From Candidatus Heimdallarchaeota archaeon (GTDB lineage: Archaea; Asgardarchaeota; Heimdallarchaeia; Heimdallarchaeales; Heimdallarchaeaceae): a DNA stretch of 53,817 nucleotides. Numbering within the stretch: position 1 is the first letter of the stretch; each line of letters opens with the position of its first letter. Made by a program: the position numbers and the translations under genes. This document shows positions 1 to 6,247 of this stretch, in pieces. Location of the stretch: positions 1 to 53,817 of the forward strand of contig JABCTC010000023.1 in the NCBI GenBank assembly GCA_018238545.1. The letters run 5' to 3'. The notes beneath the pieces were generated by a model. That model was given only the letters and a program-made list of their open reading frames with translations, was not told where the DNA came from and searched no databases.

Positions 1-1062
1 TTCACACTCTTTGACCATTTCATGCAGAGTGTCCCTCAGTTAGTTAAAGGTCTCCCAGTAGCAAAAGTTGTTCCATTACCATTTAAAAGAAAAAAGAAAG
101 GAAGATTACCCATAAAATTGTTAATGAAAAAATATTATGTTATCGCCCGTCAAGGGAATGCAAAAACACTAACAGCACAAATTAATAAACAAGGATGGAC
201 AGAATTAGGTTTTCCCCAGAAAGGGAAGAAGAAACTTGTTGCAAAAACACTTTCCCCCTCCAAAGTACGAGAGTATATTCACAATGGCGCAGAGATCAAA
301 CTTTTCCAAGTTAGCAGTGGTCAAGCACCTAGTTACAAACCTCGAGTGGATGTCGTTCTCGAGGGAGCAATGGCCTGTTTCCACTCCTCTACTCTTCTCC
401 ACACTTATCTCCCGCTTATCTCAGGTCGGAAGAAAGCTATTCTTGGTCTAGATATTAACCGCTTAGGAGTACATATGTTGGCATTCAACACCTCTGTTTC
501 TCTCCCCCCAGACCTCTTGCTTCTAGCTGAACGTTATACTCATCTCAGCAATAAGGTTCTCCCTGAACTCCATCGGGGGTTGATGCGCAAACGCAAAGCT
601 CGAGATACTCTTGGTTTCTGCAAGTTGCAGGGAGAGCTCAATAGAGTTTATACTCGTCGCATGCGAATCATTCGCGAGCTTACTCGCTGTTTACCACCCT
701 TTCTTGCTGCAGTCATAGCGAAAAAACAGTGTAAGACCTTGAAGATTGAGCAGTTAACTGTTGACCCCTCAGGTACCAAAGGGGCTTTAGCTAAAGCTAT
801 TTACACCATGCCCGATAATCTCTTCATCTACCAGAAATCTGTCTGGTTAGCTTCTCAAGAGTTAGGTTATCAAGTGCAATTAGAATCTGTTAGTCCTTAC
901 CATACTAGTACTATTCATTATGGTTGTGGAGGAACGTTAGTTCGCAACCAAAGCCAGTATGATTATACTCCTTGCAAAAAGTGTGGACGAAAAGTTAACA
1001 CTCATACTAATGCCGCACACAATATTGCTTCTCTGTCTGGTACAATCCTTCCTTCCTTATAA
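1..1062 (+). CDS. tnpB: TnpB-like RuvC/zinc-ribbon protein, divergent; probably 5'-truncated by the window edge
   Basis: RuvC-I LGLDIN, RuvC-II KIEQL, SPYHTS, HxxC..CKKC zinc ribbon, RuvC-III-like HTNAAHNI. The frame is open from base 1 to the ATG at 22. Confidence 0.75.
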   Translation, partial: FTLFDHFMQSVPQLVKGLPVAKVVPLPFKRKKKGRLPIKLLMKKYYVIARQGNAKTLTAQINKQGWTELGFPQKGKKKLVAKTLSPSKVREYIHNGAEIKLFQVSSGQAPSYKPRVDVVLEGAMACFHSSTLLHTYLPLISGRKKAILGLDINRLGVHMLAFNTSVSLPPDLLLLAERYTHLSNKVLPELHRGLMRKRKARDTLGFCKLQGELNRVYTRRMRIIRELTRCLPPFLAAVIAKKQCKTLKIEQLTVDPSGTKGALAKAIYTMPDNLFIYQKSVWLASQELGYQVQLESVSPYHTSTIHYGCGGTLVRNQSQYDYTPCKKCGRKVNTHTNAAHNIASLSGTILPSL

Positions 1063-1146
1063 TCCTCTTCCCCTCACCGCACGCGAGGGGACCCACCTAA
1101 ACGACGGTTAGACCGCCTCTGGCAAGTTTGACCAAGTTTCATAACG
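1063..1146 (+). ncRNA. Putative omega-RNA scaffold / right end of TnpB element
   Basis: GC-rich stretch directly after tnpB: hairpins CCCCTC/GAGGGG (1070-1090) and CGGT-TAG-ACCG (1105-1115), and CAAGTTT direct repeat (1123, 1133). Position matches where TnpB guide scaffolds lie. Confidence 0.45.
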
Positions 1147-1238
1147 TGCGTTGGGAGAAAGAAATATGCTAAAAGAGAAAAATCGCCAAAGAACTAAATT
1201 AATAAACATCTTAACGATAATGAGGATGGTAAATTTGC

Positions 1239-3095
1239 ATGAGTGTCTCGCAAGAAAAATCTTCTAAGAAAGTTATATCTGTTTTAATTATTGTTTTTAT
1301 TGTTATTGCAGCGTTTACATCCATATTTATTTACTGGTTTAATATTCCACAAAACAATCGTGGTTTGTTTGGCACAACATTACGTTATTACACTAAAGGG
1401 ACTGAGCGCCTTTATTATGAAGAGTATTCAAAATCTATTGCACAAGATATGAGAGAGATAGGTATTGATGTCACAGAATTGCCCACGGAATATGCGGTGT
1501 TTTTGGAAAATATATTCAGCGACAAAGACTTCGATTTAGCTATAATCGAATTGGAAGGGACAACTGCTCCTCATTTAGAATTTTTATTCAAACAAGGAGC
1601 TAGCTTGAATATTTTCAAGTTTAATGATACTTATGATGAGGGATATACTACTGATTTGTTAAATAATATTTCAAAAACTACTGATTTTTATGAAAGGAAG
1701 AATATGTTCTATTCTGTTCAAAATCATTTAATGACCAATATCTTGCCTATGGTTCCTCTTTTCACACCAGTTAGAACTTTTATTTATTGGGATAATTTGA
1801 GATATTTCAATCCCAATTTTGGTTTAGCAGATTCATTGCCCTATATGCAATTTAGTGGTCTTCATCAAAGCCAAACAGCTGTAGATGAATTGAACATTGG
1901 TGTACTTGGGAAATGGATTGACTTCAATCCACTAACCGTGGTGGAGAATGGAGAAAAATTAGTCTTGTCTCTAATTATGGACAAACTCACTACTATAGAT
2001 GACAAAGGAACTCCAACACCTTATGGAATCATTGACGATTGGGATTATGTTAATTCAACTTTTCTTAAATTACACGTTCGAACGGATGCTATATGGCAAA
2101 CAGACTATGAAGAATTATATGAAAATGAACCCTTCACTGCTGAAGATGTTATTTTCACTCTTGATTTGATGCTTGCTCAACAAGCTAACCGGAACTATGA
2201 AAAATTAAAATGGATTGATTCTTATGAAATTGACATTATAAACAATAATTATGTCAACGTGTATATAGATTCAGATCCCAATACAGTTGAAAAAGAACCA
2301 TATGCGTTTGCAATAGAGGATTTGTCAGTATATCCTTATCCTGAGCATTATCTTAATGTGTCTTCTTCAATAGATCAAATTCTTGATTCTTCTAGATGGG
2401 AAAAATTTGGTGAAATTCCCTTTGGTACTGGAAAATATGTTTATTCATTAACAGAAAGTGATCCAAACTTAGCTCTAGTATTTGATAAACACGCTAATTG
2501 GTTCAATGTAGGAGCTATTGATGGATCTTCATTATCTGTGGATTTTAATACAATAGAATTACAAAAATATTCGGATTCATATGCCATGAGACTGGAGATG
2601 CAAGAAGGTTCTCTTGATATCGCGGATTTTGGTAAAGACCCTGTTGCTGAAGACTCTTTTACACCCTTGGGTACATTCAGAACAGGTTTCAAATTGGAAA
2701 ACTCAATAGTTTTTCTAGCATTTAATCTTGATAATCAATATTTTGGAGGAGAAAATAATCTTATTCCTACAGCTGATTTGGAAACATCTAAAGCATTGGC
2801 AATAAGAAAAGCTATAGCAACTATTATAGACAAAACGAAAATCAACACACAATACCATAAAGGTATGTTCAATATTACAGATACTCCAATACCAACTTAT
2901 TTCAAAGATTACTATTATCCAAATGTTCCACGGTATGAACGTAGCATTGATCAAGCTATAGACTTTCTGGAACTAGCAGGTTACAATTTCACAGTTTCAG
3001 AAAATCCAGCACCTTTCAACTTTATCAGTGCTGGTTTTGGATTAGTTGTAGCATCTATGTTTGTAATGATTGTTTCTAGGAAGAAAAAGAAGTGA
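1239..3095 (+). CDS. Family-5 (OppA/DppA-like) ABC solute-binding protein, circularly permuted, with N- and C-terminal TM helices
   Basis: Motifs EPFTAEDVIFT, GTGKY, LAFN..IRKAIA..ID, FLELAGY, QDMREIGIDV, LPMVPLF; hydrophobic segments at both ends. Confidence 0.85.
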   Translation: MSVSQEKSSKKVISVLIIVFIVIAAFTSIFIYWFNIPQNNRGLFGTTLRYYTKGTERLYYEEYSKSIAQDMREIGIDVTELPTEYAVFLENIFSDKDFDLAIIELEGTTAPHLEFLFKQGASLNIFKFNDTYDEGYTTDLLNNISKTTDFYERKNMFYSVQNHLMTNILPMVPLFTPVRTFIYWDNLRYFNPNFGLADSLPYMQFSGLHQSQTAVDELNIGVLGKWIDFNPLTVVENGEKLVLSLIMDKLTTIDDKGTPTPYGIIDDWDYVNSTFLKLHVRTDAIWQTDYEELYENEPFTAEDVIFTLDLMLAQQANRNYEKLKWIDSYEIDIINNNYVNVYIDSDPNTVEKEPYAFAIEDLSVYPYPEHYLNVSSSIDQILDSSRWEKFGEIPFGTGKYVYSLTESDPNLALVFDKHANWFNVGAIDGSSLSVDFNTIELQKYSDSYAMRLEMQEGSLDIADFGKDPVAEDSFTPLGTFRTGFKLENSIVFLAFNLDNQYFGGENNLIPTADLETSKALAIRKAIATIIDKTKINTQYHKGMFNITDTPIPTYFKDYYYPNVPRYERSIDQAIDFLELAGYNFTVSENPAPFNFISAGFGLVVASMFVMIVSRKKKK

Positions 3096-3098
3096 TGA

Positions 3099-3821
3099 AT
3101 GATGAATACTATAAATGAACTTACAGAAATAAACCTAAAAAACAAAGTTTTACTTCAAGCTTTTAGCGGGAGTGGAGCTATTGGAACGTTACTCACAGCA
3201 TTTTTAACAAAATCTTTAGAAATGGAACAAGTAGCCGTTTTACACCCAAAGAATGTTGCTCCTGTTGCAATTGTAAAGAAAGGGAAAATAGAGAACCCAA
3301 TAAGGATTTTTCAGTCAGAACAATTTGCTCTAATGTCATGTGAAGTAAGTATACCATACGAAGAATTACCTGAGTTCCTAGAAATACTTGTAGATTTTTA
3401 TATCAAACAAGGTGTTTCATATATTGTTCCTGTAGGTGGACTTCCGATTTTCCAAAATCCCAATGGAGAATCAAAATGCGTCGGTGTATCAGCTGATGAT
3501 TCATCTCTAAAATTTCTAGAAGAGAAAGGTGTAGAGTTGTTAGATGAAGGAATAATCTATGGTTCAGTTGTAGAAACAATGGAATTGTGTCAAGCTAAAG
3601 GTTTCAAGAACTGTTTTTCACTGATGGCAGAATGTGATCCTAGTGTACCTTCTTACCAACCAACAAAAGAAATTCTCAAAGCTCTTGGTAAATTATTCGG
3701 GCTGGAATATGACGAAGAACAATATGAAGAAATTATTTCTGTCATAAAGAAAAGAATAGAAGAAAGTTCTAAATTAATTAGAGAAGAAACTATCGATAAA
3801 ACAAGAGAAAGCCATCTATGA
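3099..3821 (+). CDS. PAC2-family proteasome assembly chaperone-like protein
   Basis: AFSGSGAIG N-terminal motif, PIRIF, VGGLP, G.IYG pattern; typical length. Confidence 0.75.
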   Translation: MMNTINELTEINLKNKVLLQAFSGSGAIGTLLTAFLTKSLEMEQVAVLHPKNVAPVAIVKKGKIENPIRIFQSEQFALMSCEVSIPYEELPEFLEILVDFYIKQGVSYIVPVGGLPIFQNPNGESKCVGVSADDSSLKFLEEKGVELLDEGIIYGSVVETMELCQAKGFKNCFSLMAECDPSVPSYQPTKEILKALGKLFGLEYDEEQYEEIISVIKKRIEESSKLIREETIDKTRESHL

Positions 3822-3989
3822 TGAGTTTTTGTCTATTAGAACCTTTTTCATCTATTTTCTTGTGAATTGTAGTGAAAATACCCTGATTCTCATATTATTC
3901 CCACAGAAAAAATTAATGAATCGCCCGGAACTGCTAGAAAAGTCAGAGAAGGGATTTTTGTCGAGTTTCAGTGCCTATTACTCTGGTCA

Positions 3990-4005
3990 GAAAAAAGTTT
4001 AAATA
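3990..4005 (+). promoter_or_regulatory. Archaeal BRE/TATA promoter for the downstream ncRNA
   Basis: GAAAAAAG followed by TTTAAATA (3998-4005); predicted start about 4028-4030; no credible CDS downstream on this strand. Confidence 0.6.
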
Positions 4006-4027
4006 GGTTGGAGTTTCTGTTCTAATA

Positions 4028-4314
4028 GTTAGGGTAGTTCAAACAAGGCAGATAAAGGGGAACTGCAAACTGAACAGGAAGAGTAATCCGATGCTTAACC
4101 CCCTCAAGGGTGAACTCGGGAACAATGGTTGAACCCCTTTTTAAATGGTTTGAACCCCCATTGGGCTTAGATAAAGACCTCCTAAGTCCGAAATCCCCCA
4201 GAACCAGACTTAGTCTGGAATCAGAAGAATTTCTTCTGTCTGCCAGAACCCCAACCAAAAACCCAAAGCGTCGAGTAAGAATTTCCTTCCTGTTCAGGCA
4301 GAAATCCCTTTTTT
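4028..4314 (+). ncRNA. Structured ncRNA precursor with bulge-helix-bulge motif in a degenerate tRNA-Cys(GCA)-like frame; predicted 235-nt excised/circular RNA 4069-4303
   Basis: 12-bp perfect stem 4070-4081/4286-4297, 4-bp helix CTGC/GCAG with AAA bulges at 4067-4069 and 4302-4304, outer GGGG/TCCC-type stem, several inner hairpins with G-U pairs favouring the + strand, and a T6 run at the end. Confidence 0.7.
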
Positions 4315-4332
4315 CAATTCATTCTTCTTTCA
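4309..4332 (+). terminator. Oligo-T / pyrimidine-rich archaeal terminator
   Basis: TTTTTT immediately after the closing stem, followed by a T/C-rich tract. Confidence 0.5.
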
Positions 4333-4428
4333 TTAAAAATATGGTAATTTTAGAAGATAATAGATAAAACGAAGAATTAATACATTTCTTACATTCTTTT
4401 ACCATGTTATATTTTTCAATATTTCTTT

Positions 4429-4755
4429 CTAACTAACTCCTTCAGCTAGTAGTTCTCCTATCGCTTCTGTTGTCATGCTAAACACAGACAAGATTTCTTC
4501 CTTTGAGTGTAAAATTTCGTAAAGATTTTTAAGCTTCAAATCTTTACCTTTGGCATCTTTTAGAATGATTTCATATCCCAAACCTTTACCCAAATTTTTC
4601 TCATCATTAATCCAATCTTTTTGTTCATCAAAAAATTGTGAGAGAAAGCATTTGATACTATTCACATCATTAAGTTTGTAATGTGCTAATTCCAAACTCT
4701 TTTCCTTATTTTCGGTTAATATTTTGAAGATCAATTTCCAAGTCAAATTTTTCAC
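4429..4755 (-). CDS. Hypothetical protein
   Basis: 108-aa ORF with host-like composition; GTG start; no recognised motif. Confidence 0.6.
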   Translation of the reverse strand: MKNLTWKLIFKILTENKEKSLELAHYKLNDVNSIKCFLSQFFDEQKDWINDEKNLGKGLGYEIILKDAKGKDLKLKNLYEILHSKEEILSVFSMTTEAIGELLAEGVS

Positions 4756-4820
4756 CTAATTTTCTTTTCATTATTATTATTCTCAAATTGACTTAAAAAG
4801 GAGGCAATTTTGTCTTCGAG

Positions 4821-6247
4821 TTTATGAATATGTTTTTGTCTTTTTGTCTTATTTGCTTGTAAAACTAGTAACATTTTAGTGATATTACGGGTGTTTTTAT
4901 AATGAACTCTGGGTCAACGAAAGATGGCAAAGGTACTGCGTGCAGAGCGTATAGAAGTGACGTATCATCCAGCATTAAGCAGAATCTGTCATCAAGCAAA
5001 AAATCTCCATAATCGAGCAAATTTTCTGATAAAAACCTCTTTGAAGCAAACAAGTACGCTTCTCTTTTACTATGATCTTGACAAACAGTTGAAACAGGAG
5101 GAGTGCTACAGAGTCCTTCCGGCTCATGTTGCACAACAGACGCTCAAACTCCTTTCTAGAACTTGGAAGAGCTATTTCCAAGCTAAACAAGAGTGGAAGA
5201 AGAAACCTACATTGTTTTTTGCCATGCCTAAACCACCTAGCTACAAAAAGAAAGATGGAGAAACAGTAGCCATCTTCACCAATCAACAAGCGAAGATAGT
5301 CAATGGATGGCTAGTGTTACCTAAAAAAGTGAAGTACACCTACAAGACAAGACTAACAGCTCAAGCAGAGCTAAGAGAAGTTAGAATCATTCCTCGAAGG
5401 ACACATTACACCCTTGAACTTGTTTATTTGAAGAGTATACCAAGTCTTAGGAAGAAGATGACCAGAAAAGGAGCGATAGATCTAGGGATGGACAACCTTG
5501 CCGCTTTCGTGGATAACCTCGGAGGAAGGCCGATTGTTATCAAAGATGCAGGGAAGGGGATAAAATCCATTACGCAATATTATTTGAAAGAACAGAAAAA
5601 ATTACAAACACAGTATAGTCAGCAGCAGAGAAAACAATTGCAATCGAATAATCGTCTGAAATATGGTCCAGCTTATTACAAACTCAAAGAAAAGTGGAGA
5701 AGAAAGCTAAATGATGCTATCCACAAATTAACCAAGTATCTGGTAGACTTGTGGGTCGAACGAGGGCTCCATGAAGTGGTAATAGGCTATAACCCGTTGT
5801 GGAAACAAGGAGTGCATTTCTGGAAGAAAACTACCCAGATGTTCGTCACCATTCCCTATCTAAAAATCATTGATGTGCTAAAATATAAAGGAGCTGAGCG
5901 AGGGATAAAAGTGGAGACCATCCCAGAAGAATACACTTCTAAAAGCAGTTTCCTGGATAATGAGTTCCCTAAAAAACGGAAAAAGTACAAGGGAAAAAGG
6001 ATTCACCGAGGGTTGTTCCGTTCTGCTGCTGGTCACTTGATCAATGCTGACGTTAATGCCGCATACAATATTCTGATAAAAAGCGATCCGAAAGCACTAC
6101 CTAAACGTAGTGTGAACGGGGTAGGAGGATACGTGATGTATCCACTAAGAGTGAGTATAGAGTGTCTTCGCCCCATATCATGACCTCTAAGCACGACATG
6201 TACCTAGCTTTGTCTAATAAGACAAGAAGACAAATAAGCATCATAAA
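4821..6247 (+). mobile_element. Non-autonomous TnpB-only insertion element bounded by imperfect inverted repeats
   Basis: Inverted repeats 4821-4853 and 6216-6247 flank a single tnpB; visibly higher GC than flanks; no transposase inside. Confidence 0.7.
4924..6183 (+). CDS. tnpB: RNA-guided endonuclease TnpB (IS200/IS605/IS607-associated), rearranged-RuvC type without zinc finger
   Basis: AKNLHNRANF, AQQTLK, GAIDLG, VVIGYN..WKQ, EEYTSKSSFLD, GKRIHRGLF, INADVNAAYNI. Confidence 0.92.
   Translation: MAKVLRAERIEVTYHPALSRICHQAKNLHNRANFLIKTSLKQTSTLLFYYDLDKQLKQEECYRVLPAHVAQQTLKLLSRTWKSYFQAKQEWKKKPTLFFAMPKPPSYKKKDGETVAIFTNQQAKIVNGWLVLPKKVKYTYKTRLTAQAELREVRIIPRRTHYTLELVYLKSIPSLRKKMTRKGAIDLGMDNLAAFVDNLGGRPIVIKDAGKGIKSITQYYLKEQKKLQTQYSQQQRKQLQSNNRLKYGPAYYKLKEKWRRKLNDAIHKLTKYLVDLWVERGLHEVVIGYNPLWKQGVHFWKKTTQMFVTIPYLKIIDVLKYKGAERGIKVETIPEEYTSKSSFLDNEFPKKRKKYKGKRIHRGLFRSAAGHLINADVNAAYNILIKSDPKALPKRSVNGVGGYVMYPLRVSIECLRPIS

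Follow-up and report, generated by a model that had tools for sequence, protein, structure and literature searches.

Genomic setting and architecture of the locus

The window, i.e., the whole stretch of 53,817 nucleotides that was analysed, is contig C63 of a 3.63-Mb heimdallarchaeal genome that is 92% complete. An RNA gene lies in the intergenic space that separates a PAC2 gene (3099-3821) from a 108-aa ORF on the reverse strand (4429-4755). Beyond this ORF come a TnpB element, rpS30e, and then genes resembling Elp3, fibrillarin, and Nop5, which were named from the appearance of their sequences. The 108-aa ORF has no Pfam match and is conserved within the genus, where it marks the far edge of a variable region. 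Two TnpB-family genes of the IS200/IS605 type flank the neighbourhood (22-1062 and 4924-6183), the second of them inserted between the 108-aa ORF and rpS30e.

The coordinates given in the preliminary description for the TATA box, the strands of the bulge-helix-bulge (BHB), the inner stem, and the T6 tract were all found to be exact. On the plus strand, a BRE-like purine run and a TATA box occupy 3989-4005, with the TATA sequence TTTAAATA at 3998-4005; this box is probably the promoter, and the precursor would then start ~25 nt past it. The 5' leader of the precursor (4030-4056, plus strand) is G/U-rich, variable, and covered by no RNA contig. The 5' strand of the BHB (4054-4069, plus strand) runs through the outer helix (outer strand at 4057-4062) and the CTGC of the central helix (4063-4066) into an AAA bulge (4067-4069), with a predicted cut at 4068/4069. 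It is followed by one side of a 12-bp closing stem, P1 (4070-4081 with 4286-4297). The 3' strand (4286-4308, plus strand) contains the P1 partner, the GCAG of the central helix (4298-4301), the second AAA bulge (4302-4304, predicted cut at 4303/4304), and the outer helix TCCC (4305-4308), after which a T6 tract (4309-4314) is the likely terminator; a T-rich end is present in all copies of the gene described below. The mature product delimited by the two cuts is a circular RNA of 235 nt (4069-4303, plus strand), in which ligation would cap P1 with the 7-nt loop GCAGAAA.

The predicted fold closes 4057-4308 with the outer helix, the 4-bp central helix, the two AAA bulges, and the 12-bp stem. A loose scan of the whole genome gave 139 BHB candidates, among which this one alone combines a 12-bp inner stem and a central helix made entirely of Watson-Crick pairs with an outer helix of 8 and a span below 500 nt. 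The fold of the circle has an energy of -70.1 kcal/mol (z = -6.0 relative to shuffled sequences), and the z-scores of the circles of seven relatives range from -3.2 to -7.0. The G+C content is 47% in the RNA region, against 34% upstream and 18% downstream. G-U pairs, the polarity of the bulges, the TATA box, and the T tract agree in indicating that the plus strand is the one that would be transcribed. The leaders (4020-4056 and its homologues) carry repeated GGTT or TTAGGG-like words, and their predicted pairing with the C-rich strands of the ring would be possible in the precursor.

Conservation and covariation of the RNA gene

DNA and model searches of 30 genomes of the family of Ca. Heimdallarchaeum, including this one (completeness 72-95%), revealed the element in 27 of the 29 other genomes and in all five genera. 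It is full length in 22 of these relatives, broken by a contig end in three, represented by its 5' part in one, and by copies of its 3' arm only in another, which gives, with this genome, a set of 23 full-length copies. The gene occurs once per genome and, wherever the loci are long enough to tell, is located upstream of the rpS30e-Elp3 block. At one locus (L026, ~1501-1545, genome G008), it stops after stem P2 and is followed by unrelated AT-rich sequence near a contig end, which may be an interrupted copy or a misassembly.

The TATA box also holds in the homologues, since TTTA(A/T)A(T/A)A is found 43-70 nt 5' of the central helix in 23/23 copies. The BHB had been described as a 4-bp helix that has, on each strand, a 3-nt bulge to its 3' side, and a covariation analysis of homologues had been proposed; with 23 copies from five genera, both the BHB and the stems proved to be conserved with compensatory changes. 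The central helix is 100% paired in the alignment of 23 sequences and shows two-sided changes (CTGC/GCAG, CTGT/GCAG, ATGT/GCAT, CTAC/GTAG, GTGT/GCAC). Both bulges are constant at 3 nt in the 22 copies that were parsed, and the predicted size of the ring varies between 213 and 290 nt. P1 has 99% of its cells paired and two-sided changes in 6 of 10 counted pairs. Over the whole structure, 97% of the cells are paired and 20 of 40 pairs show two-sided changes, compared with 2-9 when the partners are slid, counts in which the structure was taken from the consensus of the 23 copies and the relatives are not independent.

Outside the family, sequence-only models, which may miss diverged relatives, gave no convincing match in 52 other genomes of the class or in a sample of 137 non-family genomes of the phylum. 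The rpS30e-flanking loci of 28 genomes of other families contained BHBs only at chance level, and matches to the motif pattern outside the family were at the level of the controls. One bacterial motif match was rejected, being a GC-rich sequence without a BHB. The best explanation is a gene that is present once, is inherited vertically, and is dedicated to a circular non-coding RNA.

The circular joint in public sequencing runs

Parts of the stretch are contained in 18 public runs, of which 11 are on record as RNA. We examined the joint in four runs labelled as metatranscriptomes of sea-floor RNA, from four studies. In runs X2, X3, and X5, the sequence passes from 4301 back by 235 to 4067, which, given three ambiguous letters, is the same as 4303 to 4069; in run X1, the same joint is present as loose ends on both sides. 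The ambiguity lies in the three A's between GCAG and CTGAAC, which can be split in several ways, and within it the joint is consistent with ligation after the second base of each bulge. The three closed contigs are 265-266 letters long, i.e., the ring plus an overlap of 30 letters. Contig depths in the four runs are 345, 1568, 17, and ~140-480, values that rolling reverse transcription may inflate for a small circle. No contig piece starts before 4067 or ends past 4304, and the coverage of leader, trailer, and flanking genes (3500-4027 and 4336-4800) is nil in the four runs. The RNA data all take the form of contigs, from which neither the strand nor the level nor the ends of the RNA can be read.

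The excised circle of 235 nt at 4069-4303 that had been predicted from the BHB is thus matched by a joint at the predicted cut in four runs, and the search for its junction in RNA sequencing succeeded at the level of contigs, one of the four runs being flagged as probably DNA. The genome encodes EndA, in two subunits, and RtcB, and archaeal EndA and ligase are known to yield such circular products (PMC4731332; PMC7714728). Two near-equal RtcB genes are found near contig ends (C65:3630-4958 and C21:352-1680), reflecting either a real duplication or redundancy in the binning.

The helix with its bulges, the joint, and the two encoded enzymes are what is found in circular RNAs processed from a BHB by EndA. 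Our verdict is that the RNA is expressed as a circle and represents a new RNA family produced by a known processing route. Under the proposed mechanism, the TATA promoter would drive transcription, leader and trailer would form the BHB together with the ends of the RNA, EndA would cleave each bulge behind its second base, and RtcB would join the ends into the 235-nt ring. We regard identity and biogenesis together as very likely correct, with the roles of EndA and RtcB assigned by analogy with established archaeal biochemistry.

Anatomy and possible function of the ring

P1 and P2 close a multibranch domain with C-rich single strands. P2 (4088-4096 with 4266-4275, plus strand) has a conserved internal loop on its 5' side, is 100% paired, and shows two-sided changes in 3 of 7 pairs. 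It is followed, on the same strand, by the conserved motifs GGUUGAA and GAACCCC (4127-4160; GGTT(G/A)A in 23/23 copies), by a hairpin (4163-4189) with the loop motif GACCUCCU (4176-4183), and by a region (4196-4256) where CCCCAGAA (4196-4203; 23/23) and TCTGCCAGAA (4239-4248; UCUGYCAGAA in 22/23) enclose variable hairpins. Hairpins of ~20-35 nt are gained and lost freely in the multibranch domain, while the short single-stranded motifs stay. Each ring has 6-9 ACC and 4-7 AACC motifs, mostly unpaired. Neither a start nor a reading frame is conserved in the ring, whose lengths occupy all three phases; a coding role, including that of a minus-strand Shine-Dalgarno (SD) site for a small ORF, was accordingly rejected.

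The loop motif GACCUCCU is invariant (23/23), whereas variation is seen in its partner strand and in every hairpin around it. It is ~90% unpaired in the predicted fold of this genome, although its last two bases lie, paired, in the top of the stem, and it shares the 7 nt ACCUCCU with the intact 3' end of the 16S rRNA (anti-SD). The organism uses SD sites: GGAGG occurs 77 times near starts against a background of 6.5, and 27% of the ORFs, versus 6.5%, reach -6 kcal/mol or better when paired with the 16S tail. Of the ORFs, 6.2% offer the loop motif a start-proximal stretch to pair with at -8 or better, compared with 1.1-2.6% for control stretches elsewhere, an excess that is expected of any anti-SD-like sequence and does not imply binding. 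The loop at the junction shows no such bias. The match with the 16S covers 7 nt only and misses the part of the SD that is commonest here (GGUGA).

We suggest that the ring may be a nuclease-proof hub that keeps several C-rich single strands open, and that its invariant ACCUCCU loop could pair with strong SD sites of the AGGAGGU type and so damp initiation on a subset of mRNAs. A precedent is RsaE, in which unpaired C-rich motifs bind SD sites (PMC2790875). Like RsaE and related sRNAs of Firmicutes, the ring has several unpaired C-rich motifs in its most conserved parts, complementary to SD sequences, as is typical of sRNAs that mask these sites. However, such sRNAs are linear, bacterial, and unrelated in sequence, and SD binding was shown for RsaE whereas it is only predicted for the ring. 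The full explanation, in which a circular RNA gene has a loop that masks ribosome-binding sites in the manner of RsaE, remains tentative and in our estimate somewhat short of an even chance. We rank SD masking first because of the invariant loop matching the 16S, the use of SD sites by the organism, the excess of pairing between loop and starts, and the RsaE precedent.

Nearly as likely, if doubtful in itself, is that the same circular RNA serves as a sponge or scaffold for proteins. CsrB and RsmZ are protein-sponge RNAs in which a short motif is repeated between hairpins. The ring resembles them in having one short motif between hairpins, but the motif is C-rich instead of GGA and the molecule is circular. 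A single protein might bind in several copies to the RACC or GAACCC repeats of the ring, or a factor that recognises the 3' end of the 16S might be lured away by the ACCUCCU loop, acting as a decoy. The abundance of unpaired ACC and AACC motifs fits this well, as does the insertion and loss of whole hairpins between motifs that remain undisturbed. Moreover, an anti-SD-like motif, UCACCUCC, is also present in the leaders of the rRNAs (all five 16S leaders and several 23S leaders; L077-L081, L119-L122), which hints at a motif for protein binding or cleavage rather than for SD masking. On the other hand, a sponge does not need the exact anti-SD heptamer, and the candidate partner Ro60/TROVE is encoded in only 2 of the 30 family genomes, this one not among them. 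In the same rRNA loci (L077-L081, L119-L122), the processing stems of 16S and 23S share an arm, AAGAACUC, and that of 16S resembles a simple duplex lacking a BHB. Extra hairpins are inserted in or near the last 16S helix in three genomes (L081, L079, L080).

It is improbable that the ring is associated with ribosomes or with rRNA maturation, as a guide, a chaperone, or a displaced piece of rRNA. The position of the gene upstream of rpS30e and of the Elp3-, fibrillarin-, and Nop5-like genes favours such a role, and the 5S rRNA of the family would also pass through a BHB-like joint (see below). Yet the ring shows no complementarity to 16S, 23S, or 5S that recurs at a fixed position from genome to genome, it has no C/D boxes and no similarity to any rRNA, and the 16S and 23S genes, found elsewhere in the genome, match their models end to end.

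Relation to known RNA families

The unit had been described as a stand-alone, BHB-processed, non-coding circle of no known family, and this description is upheld by the lack of an Rfam match, the conserved structure, and the joint. An Rfam scan of the linear region 3000-5500 down to E = 5 gave three weak and irrelevant matches, all outside the unit. Could a permuted or heavily diverged SRP, RNase P/MRP, Y RNA, or tmRNA have been missed by Rfam? This seems quite improbable. The SRP RNA of Thermoproteus tenax is indeed permuted and circularised by such a route (Plagens et al. 2015, PMC4731332), and the permuted 5S of the family is also under the Rfam cut-off; that gene nevertheless still scores 31-35 bits, and the ring has no relevant match down to E = 5. 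Intact RNase P and SRP genes are found elsewhere in the genome (C125 and C124, respectively). A permuted SRP RNA would have helix 6 with its GNAR and the helix 8 motif, in a genome with no other SRP gene, whereas the covarying joint of the ring is a plain stem instead of SRP helix 8. An RNase P/MRP RNA would have a P4 pseudoknot with the conserved regions I and V, but the anti-SD-like motif has no GGAGGU partner inside the ring. The helix of P2 with its bulged C presumably resembles that of Y RNAs, against which stands the near absence of Ro60 from the family. The RUGAUGA and CUGA boxes and the conserved target complementarity of box C/D RNAs are not found either: the C box is absent, CUGA is altered in 4/23 copies, and there is no conserved match to rRNA.

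The 5S rRNA gene of this genome is circularly permuted (C59:16-203, with a partial copy at C29:1-137), as it is at L128 (~1480-1720) and in L127. Its 3' part comes first, followed by a TTCG loop closing helix I and by the 5' part, and the new ends lie in a BHB-like motif; rejoined at the predicted joint, it would give a sequence of 121-122 nt with the 5S fold. An earlier paper states that no 5S could be predicted for these genomes (PMC8813620). That the ring itself is the 5S was considered, as no 5S passed the cut-off, and was rejected once the permuted gene turned up. Since one genome has both the ring and a permuted 5S, we suggest that circularisation by splicing is a general habit of these cells and hides RNA genes from annotation.

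Among known systems, the SRP RNA of T. tenax is a close parallel: it is also a stand-alone, TATA-driven gene with a BHB between leader and trailer, cut by EndA, and circular when mature, but it is a permuted member of a known family, whereas the ring matches none and the SRP RNA is intact elsewhere. Archaeal BHB introns and circular pre-rRNAs (PMC7714728, PMC12918454, PMC12558985) share with the ring the 4-bp helix, the two 3-nt bulges, and the excised circle. These circles come from a tRNA, an rRNA, or an mRNA leader, whereas in our case the exons can be discarded and conservation resides in the excised piece. Sequencing of circular RNAs in Haloferax gave seven BHB circles, none of them from a stand-alone RNA gene (PMC7714728). 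The box C/D guide in the tRNA-Trp intron is, like the ring, a functional circle released by tRNA splicing; the ring differs from it in lacking a tRNA host, C and D boxes, and guide complementarity. Our literature search, outside of which most subscription papers fall, found no description of this RNA or of a stand-alone gene for a circle of no known family. The BHB circles known so far are introns or rRNA intermediates, apart from one permuted SRP RNA; this circle, in contrast, is the conserved product of its own gene. It belongs to no catalogued family, its hosts are close to the root of eukaryotes, and it illustrates the use of the tRNA-splicing machinery to build new stable RNAs. With this ring, the question of whether prokaryotes use circular RNAs to regulate translation can readily be tested.

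Cassette arrays downstream of the RNA gene

Within the genus of the window, the region just downstream of the RNA gene is variable. In at least eight genomes or contigs, it contains blocks of 0.4-8.8 kb, each closed by a direct copy of the last 30-60 nt of the RNA and of its terminator (arrays at L033, L034, L035, L038, L144, L146, and L149). The corresponding segment of the window (4272-4314, plus strand) is single-copy, this genome having no extra copy of the 3' arm, whereas there are six copies in G001 and four in G004. Each copy agrees with the allele of its own host, and the decay of the copies does not rise steadily with distance. The cargo consists mostly of secreted-looking proteins, including a family of ~222 aa and beta-helix proteins. 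No integrase was seen in or next to the arrays, and tyrosine recombinases are present in 2 of the 5 genomes examined. A very acidic protein of 270-320 aa is encoded at the distal end of the array in many genomes of the genus (e.g., 277 aa at L034:3539-4372) and has a homologue in this genome (C43, ~74879-75268). Its C-terminal domain is weakly similar to the DNA-binding Recombinase domain (PF07508, E = 3e-4), and it has no catalytic domain. Insertion at the 3' ends of tRNA genes is a known phenomenon, which these arrays appear to resemble.

Such a recombination hot spot at the 3' end of the RNA in relatives could fit with closed contigs that derive from an excised small circle of DNA, from a selfish replicon, or from an artefact of the library instead of a circular RNA made by the host; the contigs are moreover strandless, X2 is flagged as probably DNA, and the joint carries a 3-nt AAA overlap. 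This is nonetheless very unlikely. The joint is, to the base, the one predicted from the BHB, the other three runs are labelled RNA, the flanks have zero coverage, the gene is a single syntenic copy with a conserved promoter in five genera, and the viral contigs that were searched had no match to the 3' arm. Returning to the host-made RNA, the broadest reading of the data is that of a dedicated, stable, circular regulatory RNA, the sole product of its gene and made by the tRNA-splicing machinery, which would act in trans on SD sites or on a translation factor through its anti-SD mimic and whose 3' end would seed integrase-free cassette arrays, in a lineage close to eukaryotes. We consider it possible, at not quite an even chance.

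No support for a tRNA-Cys at the origin of the present unit

The preliminary description had taken the unit for a decayed tRNA-Cys that acts as a launch scaffold or, alternatively, for a fragment of a split tRNA. The resemblance of the joined exons to a Cys anticodon loop stands for this genome, where they read GGGGAA-CT-GCA-AA-TCCC and the splice position would be 37/38, but it is not conserved: TGCAAA is kept in only 17/23 copies, the others having GTA or ACA with a partner strand that has changed as well to keep the helix. The Cys-like GCA triplet is explained as a part of the central helix that changes together with its partner. The leader, which had been likened to an acceptor and D arm, is not tRNA-like and varies freely, differing in length and sequence between genera. 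ARAGORN found no tRNA in the window, and none in the spliced exons even with a relaxed score; there is neither a cloverleaf after splicing, nor a T arm, nor a partner half. The proposed search for an intact tRNA-Cys elsewhere in the genome found one (C68:51090-51163), to which the best local match of the unit is 8 nt. A decayed tRNA-Cys or split-tRNA half as launch frame is the least likely of the alternatives and is refuted for the present function, even if a remote origin from some tRNA intron is conceivable. The only partial duplicate of tRNA-Cys in the genome is an ordinary copy of its 3' part with the downstream flank (C49:57160-57235), likely the scar of an attachment site.
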